Notes: generated by a model not told the origin, from the sequence alone. Shown: positions 14,448 to 63,100, counted from the stretch's first letter. The stretch: 64,000 bases of DNA from Candidatus Rifleibacteriota bacterium (GCA_015232575.1 JADFZL010000018.1:66264-130263), one strand, 5' to 3'. Program-made: numbers and translations.

Positions 14448-14473
14448 TGTAAGATCTTAAAGGTTCGGTTTTT

Positions 14474-14507: not shown

Positions 14508-14732
14508 GTATCAGTTTATAACTTTGGCTTTTGTTAAGGCTCCAATAAAGACAAGGATGTCATTTTGAGGAACTTTTCAAAACCAAGGGGTATGTTGCGA
14601 GAGCGTTGTGACTTTCTTAATGTTTGAAAAAGAATAAAAATTATTAAGCATAAAGAAATATGGTCATAACGCATAGAAAAATCAAGAAAATACGAAAATG
14701 TTACCAATAAATGCAGATTAACCACAAATTTC

Positions 14733-14766
14733 ACCCATATAATTTTGAGCAATTATGACGATAATA
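14733..14766 (+). promoter_or_regulatory. Sigma-28-like promoter of flagellin 2; -10 element GACGATAA
   Basis: attatGACGATAAt is preceded by an A/T-rich -35 region. It is conserved with the flagellin 1 promoter. Confidence 0.35.
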
Positions 14767-14835
14767 TAAATGTGTGATAAACGGATTTATCCACAAGCAA
14801 GGAAGCGAAGTAAATGATTCAAGGAGGAATCAATT

Positions 14836-43967: not shown

Positions 43968-45224
43968 TTACTTGTTATTGTTGTTGTATGCATCGAACAT
44001 CGTGTACATACTTGCGATATAATTTTCCATTTCGTCAGACAAATTGACTACACTTCGTTCGTTAAGCTGAAATAAATCCTTATAAACCAATCCGGAGGTT
44101 TTGAAGTAATCGTCATAGATTTTAGTTCCGGGGTAGGGCGTAAATCGATTCAGAGATACAAATGTTGGACGTATTGTATTGATTAACTCTACCGTCATCT
44201 TCATGTCGTCAATGGTCTCAAATGGAAAACCAGTTATAAAAAAGGCGGACCATTGAATACCTGACTCGTTAAGCCAGCGAGTCCTCCTAACAATCTCCTC
44301 AACCCTGAGTCGTTTTTCTATTTTATCCAATATTCGTTGCGAACCGCTTTCAACGCCGATGTAAAGTCTACTCCCGCCATATTTTATGAATCTTTCGATC
44401 TTTTCAGGCGAGAGGGCCATTACTCGAGCTCCTACGCTGAACGCAAGGCCATATTCCCTGAAGAGATTGGTGACTGACTCGAAATGCCTTTGATTAGAGA
44501 AAAAGCAGTCATCCATTGTTGTAATTGAGGCTGTTGCGTGATACTTCTCCCAGATCTCCTCTACTTCAGACCTCAGATTTTCCAGATCACGATAAATCAT
44601 TGCCTTTTCAAATGAGTGGCAACAGAAAGTGCATGTGTTAGGGCAACCCGAGGATGTCATAAGAGTTGAAAAGAAATCAGCAGAGTAAACATCCTGGTCA
44701 AGAATAAGTCTTCTGTTAGGTTTACGATTTATTAGGTTCGGTATTGCACTCACAATGTGGTCGAAATAAGGGCCAAAGTCACATCCAGGATGGCTTTTGA
44801 GCATCCCCTGAACATGAGGTCCTCCAAGCATCGTGACAACTCGGTCGCCTAAAATCTCCTTTGCTATGCGGGCAACGATATCGGCAGAATCAATTTTGGG
44901 TGTAATGGATGAGAGACCGACCACGTCAGGCCGTAATTCTTCAATGGTCCGTCTGACTTCCTGCCATATGTGATGATTATCATCGGCAAGAGCTTCTTCG
45001 TAATGATGATAATTTCTGCGGACTTCTTCTCGTGCCAAAGAACGACAATCCAGTGTTGGTCGGTCGGCATCGTAAACACAGGCTTGGTGGCCCATTTCTT
45101 CCAGATAAGTGGCAACAAGTGTCAGAGTCACAGGGTAATACCAGCGCTGGTAGCCGAAAAAACGATAGAAAGGTGGTTCGATCAAAAGCACCTTTGATTT
45201 TGGTTTGATAAATTTCATATGCAC
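43968..45224 (-). CDS. B12-binding radical SAM enzyme (class B rSAM, candidate C-methyltransferase)
   Basis: N-terminal cobalamin-binding-like domain. CxxxCxxC cluster SSGCPNTCTFCCHS. Confidence 0.8.
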   Translation of the reverse strand: MHMKFIKPKSKVLLIEPPFYRFFGYQRWYYPVTLTLVATYLEEMGHQACVYDADRPTLDCRSLAREEVRRNYHHYEEALADDNHHIWQEVRRTIEELRPDVVGLSSITPKIDSADIVARIAKEILGDRVVTMLGGPHVQGMLKSHPGCDFGPYFDHIVSAIPNLINRKPNRRLILDQDVYSADFFSTLMTSSGCPNTCTFCCHSFEKAMIYRDLENLRSEVEEIWEKYHATASITTMDDCFFSNQRHFESVTNLFREYGLAFSVGARVMALSPEKIERFIKYGGSRLYIGVESGSQRILDKIEKRLRVEEIVRRTRWLNESGIQWSAFFITGFPFETIDDMKMTVELINTIRPTFVSLNRFTPYPGTKIYDDYFKTSGLVYKDLFQLNERSVVNLSDEMENYIASMYTMFDAYNNNNK

Positions 45225-45358
45225 TTGAACAATTCCTGATGTGAACCGATAAATTTAGTGAAGGGAACTATATTTAAGCTGTTCCATATCGCGCTTGTCA
45301 ATACCTTGAATTGAAAAAATCTCCTGACTTAAGACTCCGATCATCAAACTGTGTTTAT

Positions 45359-45670
45359 TTATAAGTCTTGCTGCTGAACATGATACCTAGAATCAAAAAA
45401 TACTTCAGCATCAATGTAATTGTGCGAGGAGCAGGAAAAAAAGTCTACAGTGAGTTCTCTTAGCAACGATAGACTTTCCTGACAATAGTTTCCCTCTTTT
45501 TGATAATGGGTTAAAAAATCATCCCCAGCAAAAAACGGCTTATCTGAAAAGCTTTTCCACAAAACGCAACAGCTTATTGAAACAAGTTTTGTCAGCCCCA
45601 CACCGCAAATAAGAAATACGAACCTGCATAAAGAGGGGAACTTACTTGTGCTGTGGAAAACAAATTTCAT
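45359..45670 (-). CDS. Small hypothetical ORF between the two B12-rSAM genes (doubtful)
   Basis: 103 aa, Cys-rich. No motif. It occupies a 480-bp gap. Confidence 0.2.
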   Translation of the reverse strand: MKFVFHSTSKFPSLCRFVFLICGVGLTKLVSISCCVLWKSFSDKPFFAGDDFLTHYQKEGNYCQESLSLLRELTVDFFSCSSHNYIDAEVFFDSRYHVQQQDL

Positions 45671-45704
45671 GAGATCTCGCTTGCTTTGGTGAAGTTATCG
45701 AAGT

Positions 45705-47330
45705 CTATACCGTCAGGTTCTTGGAAAAATGTTGTATCTTGCTCGCCACTCTATTCAACAGCGTTTCATTATTCGTGATTTTAGCAATGGAAAGGAAGGT
45801 AACAAGAGAAATTATTATCCTAGGCAACAGAGCAGTCTTGGGCAAATTATATTCATTCCGGTAATTTTCCAGCTCTCTCTGGGTAACCCCATCCAATTGT
45901 CCAATAAGTAGTCCCATTTCCTCATCATGCTGCAAAAAATACTTTTTTATGCAGACGCTTTCATTATTGACAGGATTAACAAAGGTCACATCATGCGTCG
46001 GATATTTTTCAGATGAGAAAATTGCAGATCCAGGAAATGAAAGCATGTGGGTGACAAGACTTATTTGGCATGGGCTGTCCATATACTGGATAACCTGTCT
46101 GACGGTTTCCAGCAATTCATCTGTCGTGCTTTCTGGAATTCCAAGAATTAGATTGATGGTAGGATAGAGGTTATTTTCTAGCAATCCTTTCAAGACAGCA
46201 TGACATTTTTCGCTCGTAATACCCTTGCTTATAGACGCACTGCTCAGCAACCGGTCTGAAAATGTTTCTACTCCCAACGAAATGTTATGAAATCCAGCTT
46301 TTGAAAGAGCCTGCATCAGCCGGTGGTTTACGGTAGAAACCCCTTCACAGTCCTTTATCAAAAAACAGTTCGGTCTCGTCTGGCAACTGAAGCGAATATT
46401 TTCCGGCAATTCCCTCTTCTGTTTCGAAGCAATTATCAAATTGCAAATATCTATCGCGCGCTCAATCCCCGCCTTGTTCCCAATGAGAAAATCTTCGTCA
46501 TTGATGGAAAAACTTTTAGCCCCGTATTTCGTTACAAAGTGAACTATGAGATGGTGAACCTGCTCTGCCGTGAGACTCATCGGCTTTAACGCAGATCCCT
46601 GTGCCTCCTTGAGAAAATCGGGACAACAACAAAAACCGCATCGGGCAAGGCACTTGCTCGTAGTCAGAAGCCTTCCATTCTCAATGATGTAGGAGCGATT
46701 GTTTGCCAATAGTATACCGGTCGCTTTTTTTCTCATGAAGCCCCAATATCTATCGTAGGGTAAGTCTATATCGATAACATTACGGTACATGAGCTGTTCG
46801 AATTTCACGTTAGTAAGAGACTTAGCCGGATTATGAACCATACATCCGTGATCATCAAGAAAAGCAACGCCGTCACACCCTTTGAGGAATTCGCGATAAC
46901 TTGACTTAGAGCTTCCAAATTTCAAGCATATTTCCAGCAAAGCTTCTTCTGCATAACCGAGACAAACCACATCAAATCCGCACTTCAACCATTGCTTGTA
47001 GTTGATGGTGGCCTGCACACCTCCCGCGATGAACAGGCAATGTTTACCAATCCGGCGATAGATCTCCTTCAATGAATGTAGGAAATTTAGATCTTCAAGC
47101 ATTCTCCAGTGAGTGACGCTTATGCCTATAATGTCGTAAATACCATTCTCAAGATCAAGCAAATAATCGCATTCTAAATTTAGCTGATGATCCACCACAT
47201 CGCAGCGTATTCCGCTACTGTTCAGAACATGTCGCAAATTATACAAACCAATAGGAACTGACAAACTGTCAGGTGTTTCTTCCGCTGGTGATTTCGAGGT
47301 GAACAGAATAACTGCAGGTAAAACACTCAT
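45705..47330 (-). CDS. B12-binding radical SAM enzyme (second paralog)
   Basis: N-terminal B12-binding-like domain. CLARCGFCCC (Cx3Cx2C). Confidence 0.75.
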   Translation of the reverse strand: MSVLPAVILFTSKSPAEETPDSLSVPIGLYNLRHVLNSSGIRCDVVDHQLNLECDYLLDLENGIYDIIGISVTHWRMLEDLNFLHSLKEIYRRIGKHCLFIAGGVQATINYKQWLKCGFDVVCLGYAEEALLEICLKFGSSKSSYREFLKGCDGVAFLDDHGCMVHNPAKSLTNVKFEQLMYRNVIDIDLPYDRYWGFMRKKATGILLANNRSYIIENGRLLTTSKCLARCGFCCCPDFLKEAQGSALKPMSLTAEQVHHLIVHFVTKYGAKSFSINDEDFLIGNKAGIERAIDICNLIIASKQKRELPENIRFSCQTRPNCFLIKDCEGVSTVNHRLMQALSKAGFHNISLGVETFSDRLLSSASISKGITSEKCHAVLKGLLENNLYPTINLILGIPESTTDELLETVRQVIQYMDSPCQISLVTHMLSFPGSAIFSSEKYPTHDVTFVNPVNNESVCIKKYFLQHDEEMGLLIGQLDGVTQRELENYRNEYNLPKTALLPRIIISLVTFLSIAKITNNETLLNRVASKIQHFSKNLTV

Positions 47331-47761
47331 TTTGCATTACCTTCCCCTGCATTGAATCCAAGATAGAAACTTAAATTTTTCGTTTCAAAAAGTTCCTTCA
47401 ATTTTGGACGTTTTTCTCCTAGAATAATTAACCATGGAGCAATCTACGTTTTAATAAAAGAATATAAATTAGACGCCACTAATTATAGCGCTTTATTAAA
47501 AAAAAGCAAGTGGAAGTTTGACATTTATCCAGGAATTATCTATTACCATTAAAACAACTATAAATAGATGTTTATATAGAATGACTTTATTCGATGTCTT
47601 AGCAATAAAAGTTTTGTTAATGCAGATTTAAAAGAATTTTGATGGATAATTCCTGACATTTATCATTGTCTTTTGTCAAAATATTTGTTAAACTCATATG
47701 GTTGTTCACAGTTTTTGATGATGGTCAAATAATTCTAATTTTTTTAGGGAAAAACGGCTAA

Positions 47762-49036
47762 TTGAAAAAGCATTTTCAAAATCAACGAAAAGTAACTTCC
47801 TTCCAAACACTTCAGTACAGGTATGATCAGAACTGTAGACTGTGTGGGAGTGAGCGTATTTCATCAGCCCTCAAGCTACAAGATACTCCACTAGAAGACC
47901 AGTTTTTAAAAGTGCCCACCTTTCAACCTACGTTTCCTCTAGAGTTAGCCCTTTGTGAAAACTGTGGCTATCTTCATTTACCCTACATTATTAGTCCCGA
48001 AGCTAGTTACTCTGATTATATGTATGTAAGCGGTGTAACTGTGGGTCTTAGAAACCATTACGATGCGTATGCCGAAGAAATAGTTACCAATTATAATATT
48101 CCCAAAGGGTCATTGATTGTGGATTTAGGAAGTAATGATGGTTCGATGCTGGCTTCTTTCAAGCGTATCGGAATGCAAGTGCAAGGGGTAGAACCAGCTA
48201 CTGCAACAGCTAAACTTGCCAATGACAATGGCTTACAGACCATCAACGATTTCTTTACCGATAATGTTGCAACCCAAATTATTCAAGAGTATGGCATGGC
48301 TCAGGTTGTGACTGCAAACTACGTTTATGCAAATATTGACGATGTGATTAGTTTTACTAAAGCTGTTGTTAAACTTCTTTCTCCAAGCGGCATATTTGTT
48401 GTAGAGACGGGGTATCATCCAGAGCAAATGAATATTAATATGTTTGATTATATATATCATGAGCACTTTTCCTATTTCACGGTCGAAGTTTTAAAAAATC
48501 TTTTTTCTAAATGTAGTCTAGAATTAATACGAGCTACTAAAACAACTCCTAAAGGCGGTTCCATCCAGCTTGTTTGTCAACCGTCAGAAAAGCAAAAAAC
48601 TGTTGCAGACTCAGTAGAAAAATTGATTTCTGATGAATATAGACTTGGAATGCGTAACATAGAAACCTACCATCATTTTGGGAAAAAAATTCAGAATATT
48701 AAAAACAATTTACTTGACTTCCTTAAAAATATAAAATCCAAGGGTGAGAAAATAATTGGTTTTGGTGCTTCCCATAGCACGACAACCTTAATGTATCACT
48801 TTGAACTCGCTCCTTATTTAGACTTTTTAGTAGATGACAATCAGTTAAAACATGGAACTTTTTCACCAGGACATCATATACCTGTCCATCCTTCGAGTAG
48901 GCTTTATGAAGAGAACCCTGCTCATGTGTTAGTACTTGCTTGGCAACACCAAAAAACTATTCTTGAGAAACATAGTTCTCTGATAAAGAAAGGATTTAAG
49001 TTTATACTTCCTTTGCCAGAATTTAGAATTGTGTAG
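47762..49036 (+). CDS. NDP-hexose C-methyltransferase (TylCIII-like): Zn-ribbon, methyltransferase domain and C-methyltransferase domain
   Basis: N-terminal CRLCGS...CENCGY zinc-binding domain. VDLGSNDGSML motif I. C-terminal C-methyltransf-like domain. TTG start. Confidence 0.7.
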   Translation: MKKHFQNQRKVTSFQTLQYRYDQNCRLCGSERISSALKLQDTPLEDQFLKVPTFQPTFPLELALCENCGYLHLPYIISPEASYSDYMYVSGVTVGLRNHYDAYAEEIVTNYNIPKGSLIVDLGSNDGSMLASFKRIGMQVQGVEPATATAKLANDNGLQTINDFFTDNVATQIIQEYGMAQVVTANYVYANIDDVISFTKAVVKLLSPSGIFVVETGYHPEQMNINMFDYIYHEHFSYFTVEVLKNLFSKCSLELIRATKTTPKGGSIQLVCQPSEKQKTVADSVEKLISDEYRLGMRNIETYHHFGKKIQNIKNNLLDFLKNIKSKGEKIIGFGASHSTTTLMYHFELAPYLDFLVDDNQLKHGTFSPGHHIPVHPSSRLYEENPAHVLVLAWQHQKTILEKHSSLIKKGFKFILPLPEFRIV

Positions 49037-49047
49037 AGATAACTAAA

Positions 49048-50133
49048 ATGTCTTATAAAATTAACTGGTGGCGAACCTCTTTTGGTGAAGAAGAAATCAA
49101 CAGAGTGGCTCAATCTATTCGATCAGAGTGTGTAAGCCAAGGTAAGGTAACTTGCGAATTTGAGCGAAAGCTGGAAGAATTACTGCAAGTTAGGCATGTT
49201 GTTGCTGTTTCTAGCGGTAGCGTTGCCTTATTGAGTGCATTAATGGCAATTGGAATTAAACCTGGCGACGAGATAATTATCCCCAACCGTACTTGGATTG
49301 CAACAGCACATGCTGTTAAATTGTTAGGGGGCAAAGTTGTTCCCGTCGATGTAGAAGTTAATAGACCGATCATTGACGTAAACCAGATTTCGAAGGCAAT
49401 AACTTCGCAAACTCGTGCCATTATTCCGGTACATATGAATGGACGTTCTGCCGATATGCGCCGGATTCGGGAAATTGCAAAAAAATATCATCTTTTTGTA
49501 ATCGAAGATGCTGCTCAAGCAATTGCTTCAAAAAATGCTGATGGATTTCTAGGCACTCAATCCGATATTGGTTGCTTTTCTTTGTCAGTTGCTAAAACAA
49601 TTGCAACTGGCCAAGGTGGCTTCGTGGTAACGAATACTGATAATCTTGCAGAAAAATTACGTTCCATAAGAACCCACGGAGTCGAAAATGTAAAAGACCC
49701 TGGGAGGTGGGTTATGCAAGGATTCAATTTTCGCTTTACAGATGTTCTTGCATCAATAGGTATTGAGCAACTCAAGCGACTAGCTGGAAGATTGGATTAC
49801 CTCCGAGAATTATATCACATCTATGAATCCGGTCTTAAGGATTCCCCGTTCAAAATCATTCCTGTCGATATTGAAACAGGTGAGATCCCCGTCTACAATG
49901 AGTTTCTTGTTGACAATCGCCAATGGTGGATAAATCGTCTTGAAGAATCAGAAATCGAAACTCGTCCATTTTATCCTAATGTTGATCAGGCAGACTACTT
50001 GGAGGTTCCTTCTCACAACTTTCCGAATTCCGCCAAGTATAGTCTTTGCGGAATTTATTTGCCCAGTGGTCCTTCTCAGTCGGTAAGTAATATTCGGAGT
50101 GTTATAGCTGAGGTTAATAATTGCAAAAAATAA
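49048..50133 (+). CDS. DegT/DnrJ/EryC1/StrS-family PLP-dependent sugar aminotransferase
   Basis: DAAQAIAS and SLSVAKTIATGQGG (PLP lysine). 361 aa. Confidence 0.9.
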   Translation: MSYKINWWRTSFGEEEINRVAQSIRSECVSQGKVTCEFERKLEELLQVRHVVAVSSGSVALLSALMAIGIKPGDEIIIPNRTWIATAHAVKLLGGKVVPVDVEVNRPIIDVNQISKAITSQTRAIIPVHMNGRSADMRRIREIAKKYHLFVIEDAAQAIASKNADGFLGTQSDIGCFSLSVAKTIATGQGGFVVTNTDNLAEKLRSIRTHGVENVKDPGRWVMQGFNFRFTDVLASIGIEQLKRLAGRLDYLRELYHIYESGLKDSPFKIIPVDIETGEIPVYNEFLVDNRQWWINRLEESEIETRPFYPNVDQADYLEVPSHNFPNSAKYSLCGIYLPSGPSQSVSNIRSVIAEVNNCKK

Positions 50134-51050
50134 AGTTTTTATTGCTTGGAACTTCAGAGTTTACGATTATATGCGCAAATTATCTTCTTGATTCAGGTTG
50201 CGTTGTGTCTGGAATGGTAACCCTCACCCCAGAACTGCTACCAAATAATTCTGTCTCATTTGAAAATTTTTGCGCCGAAAAAAATATTCCTCTTTTAATA
50301 GTGGAAGATATAAATAATATAACTTCACTTTCTAAACTCAAACAATTTGACTCTGATTATATTTTGAGTACCTGGCCAAAAATTTTGTCGAATGCAATTC
50401 TTTCAATACCAAGGTATTTTACAATTGGCAGCCATCCGACACCACTTCCAATGTCTCGCGGGAGACATCCTTTACACTGGCTAATCTGCTTAGGTATTCC
50501 AAATACTGCCCTTACTTTTTTCCGCATGGACAATGGAATTGATACTGGTTCTATTCTATTACAAAAGTATTTTCCTGTAGGCAATTCGATTCACGATGCA
50601 AATTCTAATATGTCAAATGCTGCCAAAGAAGCAATTTTTCTATTAGTTGATACTCTTACAAAATATCCAGAATTTAAAGGTACAAAGCAAGAGGAGAATT
50701 ATTCAAACTATTGGAGAAAAAAAGATATACACGACATTACTCTTGATCCACGGATGTCTGCCTCAATGGCATTAAGAATAGTAAATTCATTTAGTCCACC
50801 TTACCCGGGTGCTGTCTTGATAATATCAAGAGAAGAATCCTTGAGAATTTTATCCGGTTCGATCGTTTCTGTATCAACAAAGTTTCCAAATTGGAAGAAC
50901 TACGAGCACGGATATATTTTTTATCATAGTAATAATGAAATAACATTGCGTTTTGATGATGCTGTTCTTTCACTCATTTTTTTTCCTTCTGGAAAAAAAA
51001 CGGCATGTGAGCCTGGAAAAAAGATTCGACCACCATCGTTTTATTCTTAA
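50121..51050 (+). CDS. Formyltransferase-family protein (sugar N-formyltransferase / Fmt-like N-terminal domain)
   Basis: IGSHPTPLPMSRGRHPLHW corresponds to the SLLP..RG formyltransferase motif. Its start overlaps the DegT gene. Confidence 0.65.
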   Translation: MQKIKFLLLGTSEFTIICANYLLDSGCVVSGMVTLTPELLPNNSVSFENFCAEKNIPLLIVEDINNITSLSKLKQFDSDYILSTWPKILSNAILSIPRYFTIGSHPTPLPMSRGRHPLHWLICLGIPNTALTFFRMDNGIDTGSILLQKYFPVGNSIHDANSNMSNAAKEAIFLLVDTLTKYPEFKGTKQEENYSNYWRKKDIHDITLDPRMSASMALRIVNSFSPPYPGAVLIISREESLRILSGSIVSVSTKFPNWKNYEHGYIFYHSNNEITLRFDDAVLSLIFFPSGKKTACEPGKKIRPPSFYS

Positions 51051-51069: not shown

Positions 51070-51966
51070 CTAAGCCAGCACAGTTTTTTCCGCAGCCTCC
51101 AATTTACCATGCGAATATTTATCAAATCCCAAACTCATTTCCTGAAGATACAAATAAATAGAAGCTTTGACTGTTAGAGGACGGTATTTTGTTAATAACT
51201 TCTTATTCGAAAGTACATATTTATTCTCATTGTCCTTCTCTTGACAATCTATTAAGGAATTTGAGTATAACTCTTTTCTCATCAGTTCGACGACCTCTAA
51301 AGACGTTGTAAGTTCATCAGCACAAATTATAAAGGAATCAGAAGTATCATATTGTTCATCGAAAATATGTCTAATAAAACCATAAATATCCCTAACATGT
51401 ATCAAATGGTTATACAGCATATTGCTTATTGATAAAGAAGCACTCTTTTTCAATGTTTTATATACTCCATCAATCCACCCATGTGACCCCACACCAATAA
51501 CACCTGGCATTCGAAGAGAAATTGTTTGGATATTCTCCTGTAAAATATTTTCACAAAAATATTTTGTTAAACCATATAACCCCGGGTTAATAATATCTGT
51601 ATTTTCAGTTACTTCACTCACTCTTACTGTGCCATAAACTTTTATTGAAGAAGTATAAATAATAAGCCTTGGAGCTAATTTCCTAGCAATTTTTACAACA
51701 TTCTCTGTTACTAGAATATTTGACTTTAAATATTCCTCGGCTGATTTGTTCAATAATGACTGACCGGCCATATGAATAATAATATCAATGTTGCGTTCAG
51801 GAAAATATGGGCTAATACTCAAATCATGAGAAATCCAAGAAAAATTACCGTGAATAATATTTGGATTAGTTCTTGAAACACCAAGAATAATTTCCCCGTC
51901 TCTCAAAAGTCTTGTGATTACATATTTTGCAATATAACTTGAACAACCTGTAAACAAAATATTCAT
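51070..51966 (-). CDS. NAD-dependent epimerase/dehydratase (extended SDR)
   Basis: N-terminal ILFTGCSSYIAKY nucleotide-binding region. YGLTK (YxxxK). Confidence 0.6.
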   Translation of the reverse strand: MNILFTGCSSYIAKYVITRLLRDGEIILGVSRTNPNIIHGNFSWISHDLSISPYFPERNIDIIIHMAGQSLLNKSAEEYLKSNILVTENVVKIARKLAPRLIIYTSSIKVYGTVRVSEVTENTDIINPGLYGLTKYFCENILQENIQTISLRMPGVIGVGSHGWIDGVYKTLKKSASLSISNMLYNHLIHVRDIYGFIRHIFDEQYDTSDSFIICADELTTSLEVVELMRKELYSNSLIDCQEKDNENKYVLSNKKLLTKYRPLTVKASIYLYLQEMSLGFDKYSHGKLEAAEKTVLA

Positions 51967-52508
51967 AACGTCGCTGTTTCTCTCATAAGATTATCTATAT
52001 AACTATTTACAGACAAAGTGTCTTCAACTTCAGGTGCCCAAGGAGCAAAAAAACTGTCACCACCTGGAATAAAAGGACCGATGCGACTCTCATGAAAAAT
52101 CACATAATCACTGGTAGGAACAGAAAAATGATAATAATTCTTTTCAAATCTGTACAATAAGTTTCCTTCTATCGAAACATCCAATCGCCTTAATACTTGC
52201 CCTTCCTCATTAAAAACAAAAACAATTTGGGAACCTTCAATAAGATGATACGCTTCGGCCTTTAATAAGTGTTTGTGAGGTCTTACATAGGTGTTTTTAT
52301 GGTGCAAAATAATCATATTGTGCAGTTCGGATTTTTGAGATTGATGCATAGAAATGCGTATATTTCTTTTTTCACGGAAAGCAATCTTTTTTAACTCATT
52401 AATGATTTCTTTGGTTAGAAAAACAACTTCTTCTTTACAATAGAAAGATAAAGACTTTGCCTGCACATCTTGAACAATATAAGGATAAGAAGAAAAATAG
52501 GAACTCAT
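51963..52508 (-). CDS. Cupin-fold protein (WbuC/WxcM-like sugar-modifying cupin)
   Basis: 181 aa. HHKNTYVRPHKHLLKAEAYHLIEGSQIVFVF is a cupin core. Located in a sugar operon. Confidence 0.4.
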   Translation of the reverse strand: MSSYFSSYPYIVQDVQAKSLSFYCKEEVVFLTKEIINELKKIAFREKRNIRISMHQSQKSELHNMIILHHKNTYVRPHKHLLKAEAYHLIEGSQIVFVFNEEGQVLRRLDVSIEGNLLYRFEKNYYHFSVPTSDYVIFHESRIGPFIPGGDSFFAPWAPEVEDTLSVNSYIDNLMRETATL

Positions 52509-52602: not shown

Positions 52603-53541
52603 TCAGAAACAGATCTTTGATTCCTCTGAATCCCACAATCTGCAACCCTTACAAAAATCAAACTTGTCTCTCAAACCTTTCAAGTGAGTTTGTCTAAAAT
52701 TCTTAAAGTAAATCCCCTTCTGCCAAATATCCTTAATACTGTGGAAATTAATATTACCATTAACATATTTGAAATCAAAATCTACTGGACAGATTGTAAC
52801 ATCACCATTATAGCGAATTACCATGGTTGAAAAAGGCGAAGTACATGGAGACTCAATTTTCTGAAAATCTCTGACAGAAACATAATTGTCTAACTGATTT
52901 CCCCAGCTATGTACACTCTTTGCGTGAACACAATCTTGCTTTTGTAAAAAGCTTCGCCAAAACTTTCCCCATTCTTCTACTTCTGAGATGTTATCTTCCT
53001 GAATAACCATTCTTACTCTAATAATCAATTTAGACAACAGTTTATCCCTTAATTTAATAAACTGAAATATATTACCTACAACTTCTTCAAAGTTTAGACC
53101 CTTTCTTATCTTTTCGAAAGTATCTTTTTTAAGTCCATCAACTGAGAACATTATTTCATCTAAACCACATTGAAGAAGAGATAACCCTCTCTCATTGTTT
53201 AACAGCGAAGCATTTGTGGAAAAAATTACATGTTTAATGCCACATTTTTTTAAATAAGCTATTCTTTCCTCAAGCTTATCATCCAGCAAGGGTTCACCAT
53301 CTCGCGACATATTAACAACTCTTACTATGTCTTTATATTCTATTAATTCATCAGATATTTTCTGAAATAGCTCAGGGCTCATATAAGCACTACTTGATTT
53401 ATGCCATTTTTTTACAGTACACATACGGCAAGATGCATTACAAGCATTCACAGTTTCAATTTCAAAGTAAACCGGAAATAAAAAGCAATCTTCAATTCTG
53501 GATAATTTTAGTTTTTTCAGCAAAACATCAGTATTATTCAT
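52603..53541 (-). CDS. Radical SAM / SPASM-domain enzyme
   Basis: VNACNASCRMC (Cx3Cx2C). C-terminal auxiliary cysteines (CTSPF...ICPVDF...CKGCRLWD). Confidence 0.8.
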   Translation of the reverse strand: MNNTDVLLKKLKLSRIEDCFLFPVYFEIETVNACNASCRMCTVKKWHKSSSAYMSPELFQKISDELIEYKDIVRVVNMSRDGEPLLDDKLEERIAYLKKCGIKHVIFSTNASLLNNERGLSLLQCGLDEIMFSVDGLKKDTFEKIRKGLNFEEVVGNIFQFIKLRDKLLSKLIIRVRMVIQEDNISEVEEWGKFWRSFLQKQDCVHAKSVHSWGNQLDNYVSVRDFQKIESPCTSPFSTMVIRYNGDVTICPVDFDFKYVNGNINFHSIKDIWQKGIYFKNFRQTHLKGLRDKFDFCKGCRLWDSEESKICF

Positions 53542-54384: not shown

Positions 54385-55308
54385 CTATTTTTTCTCTAAT
54401 ATTTGTTTAACGGTTTCAACAATATTTCTGACACTGATTCCACATGACTCTTTCATTTCTTCAAAACTACCATATTCACTACAATAACAATCATTAAAGC
54501 CTATTTTTTTGAATCTTACAGAATTTTTGTATTCCGCTAACGTATCTGCCACAGCACTCCCTAAGCCTCCAATAACACTATGCCCCTCAATGGTCACAAT
54601 GGCTTTAGTTTCCTCAGCAGCTTTAATAACAATCTCATTGTCGAACGGCTTTATTGTGTGAATATTTATCAATCTTACACTTATCGAATCACGGGCCAAT
54701 ATATCTGATGCAAGTTTGGCATCATGGACTGAATTTCCTGTTGCAATCAATGTAACATCTTTTCCATCCTTTAGAAGAATGCCCTTACCAATTTGGAAAT
54801 CGTAATCGGTATTATAAACTGCGGGTTCCTTGCTTGTTCCAAGTCGAATATAAACCGGTCCTTCGATGCTGTATGCGGCCTCAGTTGCCTTTTTTGTTTC
54901 CAAGGCATCAGCAGGCGAAAATATCTTCATATTTGGAAGCACTCTCATCAATGCAAGATCTTCTATTGCGTGATGTGTCGGGCCCAATGTCGAATAACTT
55001 ACTCCTGCTCCGATTCCAACAATTTTAACATTCATTTTTTGCATGCAAATATCATTGCGAATTTGCTCAAACGCACGCATTACAAGAAATGGAATAATGG
55101 TATAAATAAATGGAATTTTCTTACAGGAGGATACTCCAGCAGATACACTAACCATCGTGCTTTCGGCTATTCCGAAATTAACAAAATTATTCGGAAAACT
55201 TCTACGGTAACGGTCAAATACAATTGCACCATTATCAGCGACAAAAGAAAAAACGCTATTATCTCTTTCTGTCAATTGGTACAAGGTGTTTATGTAGGCA
55301 TCTCTCAT
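54385..55308 (-). CDS. Transketolase, C-terminal subunit (split transketolase)
   Basis: Transketolase Pyr/C-terminal domain. It overlaps the upstream N-terminal subunit gene. Confidence 0.9.
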   Translation of the reverse strand: MRDAYINTLYQLTERDNSVFSFVADNGAIVFDRYRRSFPNNFVNFGIAESTMVSVSAGVSSCKKIPFIYTIIPFLVMRAFEQIRNDICMQKMNVKIVGIGAGVSYSTLGPTHHAIEDLALMRVLPNMKIFSPADALETKKATEAAYSIEGPVYIRLGTSKEPAVYNTDYDFQIGKGILLKDGKDVTLIATGNSVHDAKLASDILARDSISVRLINIHTIKPFDNEIVIKAAEETKAIVTIEGHSVIGGLGSAVADTLAEYKNSVRFKKIGFNDCYCSEYGSFEEMKESCGISVRNIVETVKQILEKK

Positions 55309-56153
55309 ATATATTTCAAATCATCTCTTTCAAGGCATAATTCTTTAAGTGCTATTTTAACTTCGTTTTCATCAGGCATTCGATAATGCCAAATCGGCAC
55401 ATTTTCCATATATGAAATCCCTTTGCCCTTAGTAGTATTAGCAATAATTACACTTGGTTTTCCTTTGACAAATGGAACGCTGCTTAAAGCATCTGAAATT
55501 TGCTGAATATCATGCCCTTCAATCACTCTTGTTCCCCAACCGAAACTACGCCATTTCTCGTCCAGCGGAGACAATGAGCCAACATTATCAATAAAATCTA
55601 TTGCCTGAAGTTTATTATAATCAACAATGGCAACAATATTATCGAGTTTATGCTGATTAGCAAAAATAGCCGCCTCCCAAATGCTTCCCTCTTGACATTC
55701 ACCATCTCCCATAAGAATATAAACTTTAAAATCTTTTTTGCTCAATTTACCCCCAAAGGCAATACCTACACCAAACGGAAAACCGTGCCCCAGAGAGCCA
55801 GTCGAAGCATCAACTCCTGGCAACTTAAGCATATCAGGATGACCACCAAGGGAATTACCTTTTTGGCATGTTTTCAAAAGTAATTTCTTATCCAGGAAAC
55901 CTTTTTGTGCCAAAATTGAGTAAAGAGCAATTGAAGCATGACCTTTGCTGAGAATAAATCTGTCACGCTCTTCCCAATCTGGTTTCGACGGATTAACATT
56001 AATATACTTTTCATACAATACCGCCAGGATCTCAGCAATTGACAAAGAGGACGCGAGATGCCCGCCGCCAGCATTATACATAACTTTAAACATTATTTGC
56101 CGAAGCATCAAAACATCTTTTTCCAATTTATTTTCTTCAACTTCCATTACCAT
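55305..56153 (-). CDS. Transketolase, N-terminal (TPP-binding) subunit
   Basis: GHLASSLSIAEILAVLY and ILMGDGECQEGSIWEAA (ThDP-binding GDG motif). Confidence 0.9.
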   Translation of the reverse strand: MVMEVEENKLEKDVLMLRQIMFKVMYNAGGGHLASSLSIAEILAVLYEKYINVNPSKPDWEERDRFILSKGHASIALYSILAQKGFLDKKLLLKTCQKGNSLGGHPDMLKLPGVDASTGSLGHGFPFGVGIAFGGKLSKKDFKVYILMGDGECQEGSIWEAAIFANQHKLDNIVAIVDYNKLQAIDFIDNVGSLSPLDEKWRSFGWGTRVIEGHDIQQISDALSSVPFVKGKPSVIIANTTKGKGISYMENVPIWHYRMPDENEVKIALKELCLERDDLKYI

Positions 56154-56198: not shown

Positions 56199-57266
56199 TT
56201 AAATAAAGTTCACATGTTGTCCATGTGATTTTAAAATTTCGTTAATCAAAATATTTCTGTCATCATAAACACAATGGTGGCGACACTGCACCATAGAATT
56301 AAATGACTCAAATAACTTTTTTGTATCCTCCGAAAACCATATATCTTTAAAGGACATCTGATGCAAATCACCAATTTCAGCACCTAGTACATAGGCTTTA
56401 TCATGGCAGGGGTATATTTTACTGTCAGCACCAATAACAGTAACAATCTGATTTATCGGGCAAAAAGAGTATGACCTTTCAAAAACCATGGATAAATTAA
56501 AATCATCCTCATATTTGTTAATTACTTTAAATTTTTCATCAGCTAAATCATCTACTGCTCTGCGAATCTGGAAAATTGCTTCTTCCTTAAAATCTTTATG
56601 ATAATCAAATAAATCCTTTGTTATGCGTGCAGTGTATTTTATATGATTAGCCCCCAAGCTTTTAATCAGCTTAGCCATTTCATAAGTTTGATGCACATTT
56701 TCATGATTAACAACAAAATTTACCCCAAACTCGCAATCTGAGTTTTTAGTTGCCGCAAAGTGTTCGATATTTTTTATCAATTCAAAAAAGCAGTTTGAAG
56801 AAATATTACGTATTTTGGAAAACGTCTCTGCTGTTGCAGCATCCATGGAAATTCTAACCCATTTGGCTCTGCAAAAAAGATCCGCAACTGAACCTCTTAA
56901 CAATTGTCCATTTGTAATTAAGGACAGATCAATGTTTTTCTCCAAAATCATTTGCGCTGCCTGTTCAATATGAGGATAAACTAATGGCTCGCCTCCACCA
57001 CTGAAAGTTATCGCCTTAACTCCAATACTGTGGAAATCATCAATTGTTTTTTGGAGAATCGGCCACGGAATCTCATCTTCAAAGCGAACACCTTCGCGCA
57101 GTCTTAAATCCTTATCATTGTAACTACAGTAAAAACAGTGATGGTTACATTTATTTGTTGGCTTGACACGAACATAAACTGGCGCAGTTATTTCCTTATT
57201 TGAAATAGCCTTTAACTTCTCATTGTGCCAGAAAATCTTTAAATTACTATATGGATTATTGCTCAT
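56199..57266 (-). CDS. Radical SAM enzyme
   Basis: KCNHHCFYCSY (Cx3Cx2C). 355 aa. Confidence 0.75.
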   Translation of the reverse strand: MSNNPYSNLKIFWHNEKLKAISNKEITAPVYVRVKPTNKCNHHCFYCSYNDKDLRLREGVRFEDEIPWPILQKTIDDFHSIGVKAITFSGGGEPLVYPHIEQAAQMILEKNIDLSLITNGQLLRGSVADLFCRAKWVRISMDAATAETFSKIRNISSNCFFELIKNIEHFAATKNSDCEFGVNFVVNHENVHQTYEMAKLIKSLGANHIKYTARITKDLFDYHKDFKEEAIFQIRRAVDDLADEKFKVINKYEDDFNLSMVFERSYSFCPINQIVTVIGADSKIYPCHDKAYVLGAEIGDLHQMSFKDIWFSEDTKKLFESFNSMVQCRHHCVYDDRNILINEILKSHGQHVNFI

Positions 57267-57269: not shown

Positions 57270-58295
57270 TCATTTCAGTTTAATTGCCTGCATAGTCTTG
57301 ATATTATAATATCTGACATCATTCATGGAGTCAACTATTTTTCCTGTATCAAACGCTTTCACCATGTCTTTAACTGCATCCTCAATAGAATGACTGGCAA
57401 CAAAACCCAATTCCCTTTTAAGTTTTTCAGAAGAAACATGATATGATCTATTATCGTTGGAAGGTATTGTTTCAATAGAAATATCCTGACCAACAACTGT
57501 TTTAACAATTTCAGCGATTTCGGAAACACGATGGTTTTCATACCCTGCATTATATATTTTTCCATCAATCTTTTCTTCATCCCATTCCAAAGAACGACAG
57601 TACAATTCTGAAATATCTTCAATATGAATATTCGGGCGCATTTGGTTTCCGCCAAAAACTTTAATTACACGGTTATTAACTGCATGATTGGTCAGAATGT
57701 TTACGGTAAGGTCTAGTCTTTGCCTCGGTGAATAACCACATACTGTCGCAGGTCGAATAATCAAAACTGTGAAGCCATCACTCTTTTGCTTCAACAAATA
57801 TTCTTCACATAACGCTTTATATTTTGAATAATCAGTTAATGGCTCAAGAGGCAAGTCTTCCGTAACATTTTCCGTATCTTTAATTCCGTAAACACTTGAG
57901 GAAGATGCAAAAATAAATCTTTTAATTTTATTTTTTCTGGCGATATCAACAAGATTAATAAAGGCAGTATAATTAACACTTTTCCCCAATTCAGGATCAA
58001 GATCAAAACTTGGATCATTGGAGATACATGCCAAATGAATAACGGCATCTGAGCCTGAAACTTCTTTTTCTAATAAGCTTCTGTCTCTGATATCTCCCTT
58101 TATTTCAATTAAATTAGGATGATTTTTTACTTCATGCAGAACATCATCCCCATAAATATATAAATCTAAAACTTTAACTAAATAACCAGCCTTAAGCAAC
58201 TTAGGAACAAGAACGGCACCAACATAACCTGCCCCGCCTGTAACCAAAACATTTTTAATCGGTTTATCCATAATTTTAATCTTCATCCTCGACAA
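57270..58295 (-). CDS. NAD-dependent nucleotide-sugar epimerase/dehydratase
   Basis: VLVTGGAGYVGAVLV (GxxGxxG). YSKYK catalytic YxxxK. Confidence 0.85.
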   Translation of the reverse strand: MSRMKIKIMDKPIKNVLVTGGAGYVGAVLVPKLLKAGYLVKVLDLYIYGDDVLHEVKNHPNLIEIKGDIRDRSLLEKEVSGSDAVIHLACISNDPSFDLDPELGKSVNYTAFINLVDIARKNKIKRFIFASSSSVYGIKDTENVTEDLPLEPLTDYSKYKALCEEYLLKQKSDGFTVLIIRPATVCGYSPRQRLDLTVNILTNHAVNNRVIKVFGGNQMRPNIHIEDISELYCRSLEWDEEKIDGKIYNAGYENHRVSEIAEIVKTVVGQDISIETIPSNDNRSYHVSSEKLKRELGFVASHSIEDAVKDMVKAFDTGKIVDSMNDVRYYNIKTMQAIKLK

Positions 58296-59238
58296 TTTGA
58301 GAGTTAAATAGTCTGGTTATTTCCCTTAAAACATCCTCTGGCTTAATTAGTCGCATACAAGAATCATCAAAATAAGCACATTTTTTATCATAGCAAGGAA
58401 ATTTTTCGCAGGAAAAATTTTGTGGAAACATCTTAATTCCCAAACCGTAAAAATAATTTTCACAATAATGTGTTGGTCCAAATAAAGCAACTATTTTTTT
58501 ATTTAATGCAATAGCTAAATGCATTCCAAAGGAATCATTTGTAACGACAAGCCTGCAGTTGCTTATCCATTCAAAATAATCCTCCATACTATTCAAGCCT
58601 TCCTGCCAGGAAACAGTATATTTACTACTTATCAATTTCTCAAGTTCCTTCCAGTAAACATCGGGCCATGCCTTGAGAGGCCATTTATTTCCTACCTGAT
58701 AATTAAAACCAATGTCATATTTTTCACTTGAAGTGGGTGAATAAGAGAAAACATACTTTTGTTTTTTCCACTCAGCGCCAACCATTTCAAACAAGCCTTC
58801 CTGCCAAGATGCTTTTCGCTTACGTTTTTTCTCGATGTCCTGACAGATGCTCAACACGATGTGTGTTCCATCGTATGCTTCAGCAAGACCTTCTCTTACA
58901 TCGAAGCGAAAACCGTATCTTCGCCAAGCTTTAATTGAATCTGCCAGGGCGCATAAGCCAGGAACTTTTTCCAGATTTATTACCGTATCAAAATGTTCAG
59001 ACTGGAGCTGCAAAACGTTAGTCAAATTATAAATAAGTATTCGATGAATGAGAGGATTATTTTTCAATATTGGAAATGCTTTCTCGTCTACCAGCCATGT
59101 AACATGCTCATCTTTATACAAATTCAACAAAACTGTTGAACGTATAACATCGCCATAACTTGTCGCAGTACTTATTTCGTGCTCAAGTGTTTCTGAATAA
59201 CCGACCTTTATTATTAAAACCTTGTGCTTCTGATTCAT
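58276..59238 (-). CDS. Glycosyltransferase family 9 (heptosyltransferase-like)
   Basis: LVVTNDSFGMHLAIALNKKIVALFGPT matches the GT9 signature (DSGPMHLAAAL...ALFGPT). Confidence 0.8.
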   Translation of the reverse strand: MNQKHKVLIIKVGYSETLEHEISTATSYGDVIRSTVLLNLYKDEHVTWLVDEKAFPILKNNPLIHRILIYNLTNVLQLQSEHFDTVINLEKVPGLCALADSIKAWRRYGFRFDVREGLAEAYDGTHIVLSICQDIEKKRKRKASWQEGLFEMVGAEWKKQKYVFSYSPTSSEKYDIGFNYQVGNKWPLKAWPDVYWKELEKLISSKYTVSWQEGLNSMEDYFEWISNCRLVVTNDSFGMHLAIALNKKIVALFGPTHYCENYFYGLGIKMFPQNFSCEKFPCYDKKCAYFDDSCMRLIKPEDVLREITRLFNSQIVEDED

Positions 59239-59252
59239 ATAAAATTTTTCAT

Positions 59253-60152
59253 CTACTTTGGATTTTCAAAATCTGAAGAAGGAAATATAATCTTAACTGA
59301 AGTATAACCATATTTTTGGTAGTGGTTTGTCTTTACTTTTACATCACAAACACTGCATAATCCATAATTGTCACAAAGAGTATAACCTGGAAAGACGATT
59401 GATTCATCCAGAACATTGCCCAGGCAATGCTGGACTCTGGAAAAATATAAATCGGAGTGACAACGGAAAATATTTCCCTCGGGTGAGACAGGAATTACAG
59501 TATTTTTGCATTGAACTCTTTTTTTTGTGTGTTCTCCAAGAGCAGCATCTGGATAAAGAAATTTTCCATAAAATTTCCCATTATAATAGCCTAAGAACTC
59601 TTTTGGACGCAAATCTACCCGCAATTTTTCAGCATATTTTTTTATTTCAGCTATTTCATCGGTTAAGAAGGGTGCATCAAGGTAATATAGCCCAATGCTG
59701 AGGATTTCCTGAAATTCAGCAATTCTTTCAATTAATTCTTTATAATCATTTTGTCCCTTATGATAGCTCACTCTGATTTTGGGATAAGGGGCTTCTCGTT
59801 GGTTCCATTGCAATGATTTAAGTGCAAGAAAATGCTCTTTTTTTAAATACGAAGGCAGCGCAGTCAAAATATCCATTTTATTGTGAACAGCTTCAAGAAT
59901 TTCCCAAATACCCTTGAATAAAAAAGGTTCTCCGCCCTGCAAGGTCAAGGGAACATCCTTCGGTAATACAAACCTGTTCAACGCGATAATCCAATCCTGT
60001 GAAGATAAGTAATTCGGCTTTTTTTGCTTGAAATCAGAATTATTCAACGAAGTAATACAATAGGCGCAATTTAAATGGCATTTTTCTGTAAGATAAACGC
60101 CAACATAATCATAATCATCTGGAACTAATATTTTATTCATAAAATAATCCAA
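59253..60152 (-). CDS. Radical SAM enzyme
   Basis: EKCHLNCAYC (Cx3Cx2C). 299 aa. Confidence 0.7.
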   Translation of the reverse strand: MDYFMNKILVPDDYDYVGVYLTEKCHLNCAYCITSLNNSDFKQKKPNYLSSQDWIIALNRFVLPKDVPLTLQGGEPFLFKGIWEILEAVHNKMDILTALPSYLKKEHFLALKSLQWNQREAPYPKIRVSYHKGQNDYKELIERIAEFQEILSIGLYYLDAPFLTDEIAEIKKYAEKLRVDLRPKEFLGYYNGKFYGKFLYPDAALGEHTKKRVQCKNTVIPVSPEGNIFRCHSDLYFSRVQHCLGNVLDESIVFPGYTLCDNYGLCSVCDVKVKTNHYQKYGYTSVKIIFPSSDFENPK

Positions 60153-60173: not shown

Positions 60174-63100
60174 TTATATACTCAGAAGATGTTTCTGTTC
60201 GCGGATGTTTGATTTGCCGAAGAGAAAGAGAAAGCCCTGAGGCCATTGTTTCTGTGATGCGAAGGCGAGAGAAGCGTAGGAGTTTTTTGTTCCGATCAGG
60301 TAGTTGCATTGAGAAACCATGAGAGCATCAACCAGAGTTCTTTCGGCTGAAAGGAGACCTGAATCCGGCAATGTTCGTGAAGTTTTTCCGGTGTGGATAT
60401 CAGAATTTGTTAAAAGGCGATTGCCATAGCGTTCTCGATAATAGTCATTCATAGAAGGGAAATCTGATATTAAGAATATTCCAATTTCAGAATTTATCTG
60501 GACAATCCTATCAATGAAAGTTAAATACTGAGAATGAATCTCTGATGATTCATCGGAATCAAAAAAATCTTCCGCACCTTTTCCCGAAATCGAAACAGCA
60601 ACCCAGGGACGTCCCTTCATAAATCTACCGAACAACGATTCTGCCTTTTCCTGAATTAGCTTCACCGGCTTTAAATACTTCGAAAATAACTTTAAATAAA
60701 TCACATCCTCTGAAATACCATAATAAGAAGAATCTTGTGCTATCCAAGGTATTACAGCAGATAACGGAGTAAAGAAATCACTTACAACAGCATTCTCCGG
60801 CCTGGAAAACAAATATTGCGCGACCATTCGTGAATCTCTGCCAAACCATTGATTTTCAGGCTTCTGAAAAACTTTTGTATAATTCCACTTGCCCGGAAAA
60901 AACGACATTCCAGGATTTATTTTTTTCTCATCACCAGGAGAAAGCGGCTGAAAAAATCTTTCAAACGAATTCAAATCATTATAGTCATGGTAGAGCGAAT
61001 TTTCTCCCCAATGTACAATTGGCAAGCGACCAGTAAGTTCAGCAACCAGACACTGAGCGGCAACATGGTGAACATCTTGCCAGAAAGTCTGTCCAAGTGA
61101 GTGAATCAAATAATACCTGTCTTTCTCTTTTTTCATAAAGCTTTTTTCAGAGAGTTTGAAAGTCGGCGACAAACCATATCCCTGCGCCACTTTTGCCAGG
61201 TATTCACCAGCCTTTTGAAGATCTGCACCAGCCTTTGCCATGTATTCACGAATCTTCGATTCAGCAAGTGCAAAATTTCGCTTTTCAACAAGTTCTGATA
61301 CTTTTTTCAGCTCCGGATCGATTTCTTTCTGCAAAGTATTCAGAGCCTGAATCTTAAATCCTGGAAAATTACCAAAGCTTAAAGCGGGTTTAATTTCCTG
61401 ATTCTGGAAATTAACCCCAACAGAAAGATATAGATTCTCAAGGTTTCGAGTAAAACGCTCTGAATCAAATAGTGCCTGTTTTGTTTTATTTGCCTGCAAA
61501 AGCTGCTTTTTACCGGCAAGATAATTTCTGTCAATAACCAGTTTTATAGCAAGGTTTTCGTATTCTTCCCATGAATGAGCAATAAGATCCGGCAAACCCG
61601 CAGCATGAAGCAGACTGCCAGCTACTCTTGCCGGAAAAGCATTTCCCATATATGTTACAACCGGCAATCCAGCTAACAGGGCATCGGCAGCCGTTGAGTG
61701 AGCATTATATGGCCAGGTATCAAGAAAGACATCTGCCAGACGATAACGGGCAAGATGATCTTCAACCTTTGGAACTCGTCGTGCAAACACAATACGGTCG
61801 GGAGAAACGCCAAATTCTTCAGCATTCTTCCGGAAATTAGTCAGAGTCGGTTCATTGCGTGCCATGAGCCAGAGAACACTTCCAGGCACTTTTTTCAAAA
61901 GAGACATCCAAACCTGCCACAGCTGAGGATTAATCTTATAGTCATGGCTGAATGAACAAAAAACCACTCCATTTGCTGGCAAACCACATGACTCACGTGA
62001 TGGAGTTTCTGCAGAAATTGACAAATTAGATGCTGCTGGCAAATAGGTGTCAGGCATGTACAAGACTTTTTCACTGAAATATTTCTGATGTTCAGCAGGA
62101 ATGACATGCCTGTCAGCAATAATGTAATCAATGTATTCTACTGCAAGCGTTCCCGGATAACCAAGGAAATTAATGTGTACCGGAGCCGGCCGATATGAAA
62201 ATACTTCTATTTTGGAATCTGTCGTATACCCAGCAAGATCCACAGCGACATCTATTTCAAGTTCACGGATCTTCCCTGCTATTTCACGTGCGGTTAAGCC
62301 CCTCACATCAATGAATTTATCGAAACATTTCAGCATGCGGGCTCTGATGCTACTATTGTCGTCTATTCCAAGAGAAATCGCATAAGTTTCAAATTTGTTC
62401 TTATCGTGATTTTCAAATATTCCACACATCAGATGTCCAACCGGATGCTCACGCAAATCAGGTGACATATAAGCAAGCCGCAATTTCTTGTGATTGTATC
62501 TTTCACCTTTCCAGAGAGGAGTCTGGGGAGGTAGACAATAATGCTTTGCAAATATTTTTGCGCATTCAAACTGATCAGCAATTGAATCAGAAAGTGCCAT
62601 AAAAGCAAGGGTCTTACAAATGCGTTTGCCTGAACGTATTCCGGAAATTATTTTATCCCGCATTTGTGTAAAATCTTTCCAGTCGCCTATGTGCAACCTT
62701 TCATAAAGCAAAAGCCCTAATCCATAGTCATAATCAGGGCTCTGCCTTAGCAGGCGCTCAAACATGTCTATAGCTTTGGCACTTTCCTTGAATTCTGTCA
62801 AAAGTATTGCACTGTTTGCAAGAGCAGTCGAATAATTTGGATCAATCTCAAGAATCTGAGCAAAACGCATAAGTGCATCCTTGTGGCGATACATGTCGCG
62901 TAATAATACACCGCTGTTTACGATTGCACTCAGATAATCTGGTTTCAGCCTTATTGCCTCATCATAAGCACGTAAAGCTTCTTCTCTTTTTCCGGTATTC
63001 TGAAGAACGTTGCCATATCCAAACCAATTATAGGGAAAATCTGGCCTTGCTTCACAACCTCTTTTGAACAGTTCAAGCGCCTGATCAAGTTTCCCACGTC

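Follow-up and report, generated by a model that had tools for sequence, protein, structure and literature searches.

The described enzymes closest to the genes treated here are the C3-methyltransferases TylC3, EvaC, TcaB9, KijD1 and MtmC, which are found in actinomycete antibiotic clusters and are expected to act on a 4-keto sugar nucleotide, and the sugar N-formyltransferases (the N-terminal domain of ArnA, WbkC, FdtF/QdtF, WlaRD, and VioF), which are encoded beside an aminotransferase whose product they would acylate. Among sugars, the nearest are the 4-amino-4,6-dideoxy-3-C-methyl sugars, namely the N-acyl-kansosamine of Mycobacterium kansasii and sibirosamine, which combine a C3-methyl group, a C4 amine, and N-capping or N-alkylation; these are 6-deoxy and not N-formylated, and their pathways are not known to us to include a split transketolase or an enzyme of the formyltransferase fold. 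Here, we describe a three-gene cassette (47762-51050) of Candidatus Rifleibacteriota bacterium that lies in a 64,000-nucleotide stretch of DNA (GCA_015232575.1 JADFZL010000018.1:66264-130263), the whole of which is called the window. On balance, we favour the view that the cassette builds a C-methyl-branched 4-amino sugar, with the C3-methyl, C4-amine, and N-capping pattern of kansosamine and sibirosamine; a non-canonical active site would N-acylate this sugar, probably with a formyl group. The cassette consists of three genes:

47762-49036 (+), nucleoside diphosphate (NDP)-sugar C-methyltransferase of the TylC3/TcaB9/MtmC type, 424 amino acids (aa); PF08421, PF13489, and PF08484, all above cut-off
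49048-50133 (+), DegT-family pyridoxal phosphate (PLP) sugar aminotransferase, 361 aa; PF01041, 8.4e-87, 292 bits against a cut-off of 19.8
50121-51050 (+), formyltransferase-fold protein of the "Gly-x-His" clade, 309 aa; PF00551 (Formyl_trans_N), 1e-10

The open reading frames (ORFs) were found exactly at the coordinates and in the order given by an earlier note on this DNA, and domain matches for all three products bore out its family assignments. The note had also described the genes as translationally coupled. The aminotransferase stop (50133) and the TTG start of the formyltransferase-like gene (50121) overlap by 13 nucleotides (nt), with GAGG 7 nt 5' of the TTG, and an 11-nt gap separates the C-methyltransferase stop (49036) from the aminotransferase ATG (49048). 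In the NCBI model, the formyltransferase-like protein has 281 aa and starts 28 codons downstream, leaving out 50121-50204; homologue alignment and the GAGG Shine-Dalgarno sequence support the TTG at 50121 as the probable start instead. Both this protein and the cupin described below match NCBI entries from a 148-kb contig at 100% identity. A promoter scan gave a single weak promoter-like site, at 47705-47733, upstream of the C-methyltransferase gene.

The C-methyltransferase aligns over its full length with MtmC (4rv9; 1.9e-69) and with TcaB9 and KijD1 (~1e-49), and its domains are ordered as a Methyltransf_13 zinc ribbon, an S-adenosylmethionine (SAM) domain, and Methyltransf_14. The Cys25/28/65/68 zinc ligands and the E-H catalytic pair, in the sequence YHEH (YxEH), are retained. 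In these respects (full-length homology, Cys4 zinc ribbon, and E-H pair) it resembles the TylC3-type enzymes, and like them it would be expected to need a 4-keto sugar nucleotide, which it would methylate at C3. It differs from them in its setting, in that the cassette belongs to surface-glycan/flagellin islands of uncultured bacteria, archaea, and Leptospira, and, in contrast to TylC3-type deoxysugar pathways, it has no 2,3- or 4,6-dehydratase partner.

The PLP lysine of the aminotransferase (in SVAKTI) aligns with that of 7b0m, and is not replaced by the histidine of the dehydratase subgroup. The protein falls under the cut-off of every NCBIfam equivalog, with its top scores to PseC, LegC, and ArnB, and its best named relative in the PDB is GDP-perosamine synthase (2e-45). 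All of these best characterised relatives (perosamine synthase, PseC, LegC, and ArnB) act at C4, the position at which we would place the amine.

The formyltransferase-like protein matches Fmt, ArnA, and WbkC at ~2e-12. Its AlphaFold (AF2) model is compact, with a predicted local distance difference test (pLDDT) score of 94.6, and a Foldseek search placed it nearest the formyltransferase domain of ArnA (template modelling score, TM, 0.78-0.80), followed by Fmt, the hydrolase domain of 10-formyl-tetrahydrofolate dehydrogenase (FDH), WbkC, FdtF, and QdtF. A formyltransferase N-domain and a small C-terminal domain make up the predicted structure, which is the two-domain fold of the sugar N-formyltransferases, with which the protein also shares two catalytic residues, His and Asp, and two motifs, HxS/TxLPxxRG and DxGxDTG. 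Sequence similarity to the characterised enzymes is only ~20% (E ~1e-12), however, and they have neither the Gly that replaces Asn here nor the RGRHPLHW and NYWRKR..DPRM motifs. The NCBI name of the protein, methionyl-tRNA formyltransferase, was rejected: although the two-domain fold is also that of Fmt, the protein scores 66.4 bits against the fmt model TIGR00460, whose cut-off is 201.5 bits, the tRNA-recognition insertion is missing (the Fmt tRNA-binding loop PDRPAGRGKK aligns to a gap), Asn is absent, and the gene stands in a glycan operon.

Along the active site, the motifs read IGSH105PTPLPMSRGRHPLHW ... MDNGID141TG. Both phmmer and MAFFT align IGSH105 with INVH of Fmt and FNLH of ArnA, and Gly103 sits where the catalytic Asn falls (Asn108 in Fmt, Asn102 in ArnA), leaving no N-x-H. 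The SLLP..RG-type motif that the earlier note had reported is present as a variant of HxSLLPxxRG, HPTPLPMSRG, with Thr for Ser and TPLP for SLLP (clade form HPTxLPxxRG). Of the Asn/His/Asp triad, on which the same note had staked its proposal, His105 and Asp141 are kept and Asn is not, being replaced by Gly103. A search for the clade with a hidden Markov model (HMM) returned 1373 cluster representatives at E<=1e-30. Gly occupies position 103 in 108 of 109 word-indexed homologues and in 132 of the 134 best HMM-search representatives (about 240 of 243 scorable sequences), and none has Asn there; His105 and Asp141 are invariant in the clade, Thr107 and the folate-loop motif MDxGxDTG are also kept, and further invariant residues, RGRHPLHW (Arg115, His116, Trp120) and NYWRKR...D..LDPRM, are specific to it. 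Because Gly is present in nearly all homologues and the motifs are conserved, the replacement of Asn can be taken as a property of a distinct, uncharacterised clade and not of a decayed copy, and 1373 representatives with conserved motifs indicate a clade under selection.

Enzymes that use formyl-tetrahydrofolate can do without Asn, since the hydrolase domain of FDH has Ile104 at this position and a His106/Ser108/Asp142 triad (PMC4388273), to which His105/Thr107/Asp141 corresponds, and HypX works with a modified triad (PMC6802093). Both enzymes have the same fold as the clade; they differ from it in their acceptors, which are water or a phosphopantetheine/CoA thiol, and in having no linkage to an aminotransferase or a glycan locus. 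In the clade, Gly103 might give room for a bulky substrate with a quaternary carbon, or leave a backbone amide or water for the oxyanion. A sister clade of shorter Gly-x-His formyltransferase-like proteins is encoded directly after a PIG-L deacetylase (L026 7001-8550; L027 7001-8541), and the L027 pair sits inside a legionaminic/pseudaminic-type NeuB/NeuC/CMP-synthetase cluster, which suggests deacetylation and then re-acylation (perhaps N-formylation) of a nonulosonic acid. Given these two contexts, an aminotransferase and a PIG-L deacetylase, and the retention of His, Thr, Asp, and the folate loop, N-acylation of a new sugar amine is the most economical reading, and the evidence argues that the formyltransferase-like enzymes cap newly exposed sugar amines. 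Formyl from N10-formyl-tetrahydrofolate would be the most likely acyl group. The N-formylation put forward in the earlier note is plausible but not secure, as the enzyme lacks one defining feature of known sugar N-formyltransferases.

Gene neighbourhoods were compared over 23 non-redundant loci from at least 10 phyla, including bacteria (Leptospira noguchii, L. interrogans, L. borgpetersenii, Omnitrophota, Dehalococcoidia, Fibrobacterota, Nitrospirales, Bacteroidia, Sulfuricurvum, Gammaproteobacteria, Pelagibacteraceae (SAR11), and Lachnospiraceae) and archaea (Woesearchaeota, Nanoarchaeia, and Methanoregula). The recurrent order is cupin, C-methyltransferase, aminotransferase, formyltransferase-like gene, and orthologues of the window's genes are distributed as follows:

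Aminotransferase: 22/23 loci, directly upstream of the formyltransferase-like gene in 21/23
C-methyltransferase: 20/23 loci, usually directly upstream of the aminotransferase gene
220-aa methyltransferase: 18/23 loci
WbuC/DUF6016 cupin: 16/23 loci, usually directly upstream of the C-methyltransferase gene
Split transketolase, N-terminal half: 14/23 loci
Convergent short-chain dehydrogenase/reductase (SDR), 51070-51966: 0/23 loci

This synteny reinforces the logic of C-methylation, transamination, and N-capping that the earlier note had proposed, and together with homology it makes a C-methyl-branched amino sugar a well-supported prediction. Identity to the Leptospira proteins is 66% for the aminotransferase, the most conserved protein of the module (L001), 61% for the 220-aa methyltransferase, 44% for the formyltransferase-like protein, 39% for the C-methyltransferase, and 31% for the cupin. 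The cassette, which is clearly functional and subject to selection, forms together with the cupin the conserved core of a module that is widespread and uncharacterised. The note had expected the combination to be unusual in a flagellin/glycoprotein island, but the module is not confined to this one: it recurs across bacteria and archaea, and pathogenic Leptospira carry it in their lipopolysaccharide (LPS; rfb) locus. Almost the entire gene set of the window is also present in the Fibrobacterota locus (L019), including a GT9 glycosyltransferase (49% identity) with its adjacent radical SAM gene (36%), and there B12-radical SAM orthologues (65% and 61% identity) directly follow the formyltransferase-like gene; similar B12-radical SAM genes occur in L003 and L008. 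A literature search found no account of the gene combination, of a formyltransferase or transketolase in Leptospira rfb, of a sugar N-formyltransferase together with C-methylation, or of a sugar with both C-methyl and formamido groups, although its thin coverage of subscription journals makes this weak evidence. We know of no product, enzyme activity, or structure for this pathway.

Three recurrent members of the module have no counterpart in the window. HldE-like kinase/nucleotidyltransferase genes (PfkB + cytidylyltransferase) occur in 8 related loci, often directly after the formyltransferase-like gene. In at least 11 loci (L001 10375-11610; also L004-L007, L010, L012, L015, L017, L018, and L024), the gene directly after the formyltransferase-like one encodes a Pfam-less protein of ~400 aa, which may be a dedicated transferase or polymerase for the sugar. 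A Zn-dependent alcohol dehydrogenase, 50-75% identical between phyla, also recurs (L003 2769-3818; also L005, L006, L007, L014, L016, L017, L020, which is on the same contig as L004, and L022). In L003 (17432-18652, minus strand), the N-terminal half of the split transketolase carries a fused NUDIX domain, and the Leptospira module includes a free NUDIX gene (L001 3993-4427); these links hint at a transketolase that uses a nucleotide-linked sugar or is coupled to one.

Around the cassette, the window holds further genes that may belong to the pathway:

43968-45224 and 45705-47330 (-), two B12-binding radical SAM enzymes, divergent from the cassette; PF02310 + PF04055
51070-51966 (-), atypical SDR (SDR1), with a degenerate Gly-rich motif and YxxxK present; PF01370, 8.8e-16; weak PDB matches
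51963-52508 (-), WbuC/DUF6016 metal-binding cupin; TIGR04366, 104.8 bits against a cut-off of 42, 3e-30
52603-53541 (-), radical SAM/SPASM enzyme, accessory; PF04055 + PF13186; orthologue in L023
53724-54383 (-), 220-aa SAM methyltransferase, conserved module member; Pfam methyltransferase domains; 41-65% identity across phyla
54385-56153 (-), split-chain transketolase, C-terminal half 54385-55308 and N-terminal half 55305-56153; Transketolase_N, Transket_pyr, Transketolase_C
56199-57266 (-), radical SAM/SPASM enzyme, accessory; PF04055 + PF13186; recurs in 6 loci
57270-58295 (-), extended SDR (SDR2) of the epimerase/C4-oxidoreductase type; PF01370, 1.6e-38; PDB 6vo6, 4.3e-45
58276-60152 (-), GT9 (heptosyltransferase-family) glycosyltransferase and a radical SAM protein; PF01075, PF04055

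The earlier note had joined to the cassette a convergent epimerase/dehydratase and a cupin at 51070-52508. Both genes exist, and no terminator was found by a scan between the convergent genes. The cupin is the conserved fourth member of the operon, here moved to the opposite strand; it is the counterpart of the Leptospira DUF6016 gene that sits before the C-methyltransferase gene, and its invariant residues (H55, H63, H78, K79, H80, H127, H139, and E140) form an HxH...E, H...HE metal motif. A fold search with its model gave only generic metal cupins at TM ~0.5 (archaeal PGI/PMI, which are sugar isomerases of the cupin type, and the cupin domain of CapF, an epimerase domain), and none of FdtA, QdtA (3,4-ketoisomerase), or RmlC (epimerase) was among these weak top matches. 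SDR1, in contrast, was rejected as a conserved pathway partner, being local to this island, and it reads TSSIKVYG, without the TDE of dehydratases. SDR2 reads SSSSVYG at the same place and has orthologues in L023 and L025. Both SDRs score far under the 4,6-dehydratase cut-offs and lack the Asp-Glu (TDE) before YxxxK. With no TDE in either SDR and no nucleotidyltransferase in the window, the deoxy sugar and thymidine diphosphate (dTDP) substrate of the note was not upheld.

In the pathway that we propose, a 4-keto sugar nucleotide would be made first, likely by the C4-oxidoreductase-type SDR at 57270-58295 and not by a 4,6-dehydratase, and the cupin may epimerise or isomerise this intermediate. 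The TylC3/MtmC-type enzyme would then methylate the carbon beside the keto group, and the DegT enzyme would turn the 4-keto group into an amine. The formyltransferase-fold enzyme, whose gene follows immediately and overlaps, would acylate this amine, most probably with formyl from N10-formyl-tetrahydrofolate, using Gly103/His105/Thr107/Asp141 in place of Asn/His/Ser/Asp. Further elaboration could be carried out by the split transketolase, which matches the split-chain transketolase 6yak in the PDB (2.6e-75), by the 220-aa methyltransferase, and by the radical SAM/B12 enzymes of the island, of which the B12-binding pair at 43968-47330 are likely additional C-methylases. Finally, the finished sugar would be moved to flagellin or another surface glycoprotein.

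Candidate acceptors and transferases are encoded on either side of the sugar genes:

9918-11894 (-), Maf-type glycosyltransferase, adjoining the flagellin pair
12192-17091, two tandem flagellin genes, 751 aa each
17887-29190 (+), ALTTAQ-repeat ORF, 3767 aa, 103 repeats (PF20080)
29357-31180 (+) and 60174-63278 (-), two GT41 (O-GlcNAc-transferase-like) tetratricopeptide repeat (TPR) glycosyltransferases, bracketing the sugar-biosynthesis genes

The ALTTAQ-repeat ORF, placed between the flagellin pair and the first GT41/TPR gene, may encode a giant glycoprotein substrate, and the two GT41/TPR enzymes are candidates for the island's protein glycosyltransferases. Directly 5' of the flagellin glycosylation island lies a type IV pilus assembly operon (PilB-like ATPase, PilM, PilN, and PilO; 402-5459, plus strand). 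Besides the split transketolase and GT9, the island also contains five radical SAM genes, two of them of the B12 type, and several methyltransferases.

Several points weigh against the proposed pathway. The Asn that Gly replaces has been called "crucial for catalysis" in the amine-formylating enzymes Fmt, ArnA, and GART (PMC4388273), and the acceptor of the known relatives that lack it is water or a thiol, not an amine. The nearest solved structure matches the clade at E ~1e-12. No nucleotidyltransferase, 4,6-dehydratase, or folate gene is encoded within the window. Sequence does not reveal which carbon is methylated and which is aminated, and the real product may be more complex than proposed, since the scheme does not explain what the transketolase, the cupin, and the radical SAM enzymes do.

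One alternative goes further than this pathway. The Gly-x-His clade might be a new enzyme class that caps hindered, C-branched sugar amines, either by altered catalysis or with a one-carbon or acyl donor other than formyl, and the module might build an undescribed higher-carbon, C-methyl-branched acylamino sugar common to Leptospira LPS and to candidate-phyla and archaeal surface glycans. We regard this broader possibility as tentative and as the less probable of the two, if the best placed of the alternatives.

A heptose or higher-sugar substrate is a real alternative to a 6-deoxyhexose, as the type of SDR2, the transketolase, GT9, and the HldE-like genes of related loci together indicate, even if we judge the specific scheme unlikely. 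A ketose phosphate from the transketolase would be activated by an HldE-like enzyme encoded elsewhere in the genome, a Cj1427-like SDR would oxidise C4, and the product, a 4-acylamino-3-C-methyl-heptose, would be transferred by GT9. The co-conservation of the split transketolase and the recurrence of GT9 in the Fibrobacterota locus favour this scheme, as do the HldE-like genes of the 8 related loci; HldE, GmhA, and GmhB are absent from the window, however, and GT9 enzymes are not strictly heptose-specific. The best solved relative of SDR2 is 6vo6 (4e-45), which we provisionally take to be Cj1427, a GDP-heptose C4-dehydrogenase, and high-scoring SDR2 orthologues occur in only 2 of the 23 loci. 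The enzymology of Cj1427 has been described (PMC10680097).

About as doubtful is the idea that the formyltransferase-like protein is not an amine N-formyltransferase at all, but a formyl-tetrahydrofolate hydrolase or thiol-transferase-like enzyme, an enzyme that draws on a different acyl or one-carbon donor, or a partner protein of the aminotransferase without catalysis of its own. Gly stands for Asn in essentially the whole clade, the only characterised relatives without Asn (the FDH hydrolase domain and HypX) do not formylate amines, and the new invariants Arg115, His116, Trp120, and NYWRKR...DPRM point to altered chemistry or substrate binding. This is countered by the retention of His, Thr/Ser, Asp, and the folate-loop motif, by a high-confidence, compact, ArnA-like model, and by obligate adjacency to amine-generating enzymes in two clades (aminotransferases in 21/23 loci; PIG-L deacetylases).

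The 6-deoxyhexose pathway fares worse and appears improbable. Here a dTDP- or other NDP-4-keto-6-deoxyhexose would gain a C-methyl group, then an amine at C3 or C4, and finally an N-formyl group added by a canonical WlaRD/VioF-type enzyme, with the convergent SDR and the cupin acting as epimerase/dehydratase and ketoisomerase. The domain evidence is the same as for the pathway that we favour, and L004 has an NTP-transferase and an RmlB-like SDR nearby. Against this stand the missing catalytic Asn, the absence of SDR1 from all 23 loci and of dehydratase residues from SDR1, the lack of TDE in SDR2, a cupin without FdtA, QdtA, or RmlC among its top fold matches, and the absence of RmlA/RmlB-type genes from the window.

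Nonulosonic acids are the usual cargo of Maf enzymes, and a nonulosonic-acid precursor (UDP-4-keto-6-deoxy-N-acetylhexosamine) leading to a 7-N-formyl, C-methylated pseudaminic/legionaminic-type acid that Maf would put on flagellin is recommended by the best, if sub-cut-off, scores of the aminotransferase to PseC and LegC, by the Maf gene beside the flagellin genes, by nonulosonic-acid genes adjoining the module in Leptospira and L006, and by the sister clade inside a NeuB cluster, but it is very unlikely, because only about 3-4 of the 23 loci have such genes beside the module, where they come with their own aminotransferase, and neither NeuB, NeuC, nor a CMP-nonulosonate synthetase is encoded within the 64-kb window, Maf notwithstanding.

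Taken as a whole, the systematic misannotation of the clade as "methionyl-tRNA formyltransferase" can be corrected, and study of the clade would reveal if the Asn deemed essential in Fmt, ArnA, and GART is dispensable for an amine formyltransferase. Little of the O-antigen chemistry of Leptospira has, to our knowledge, been resolved so far, and the culturable Leptospira species provide a tractable organism for identifying the sugar. If the prediction of a C-methyl-branched, N-acylated amino sugar holds, the cassette would represent a sugar-modification pathway that spans bacteria and archaea and is found in at least 1,000 protein clusters.

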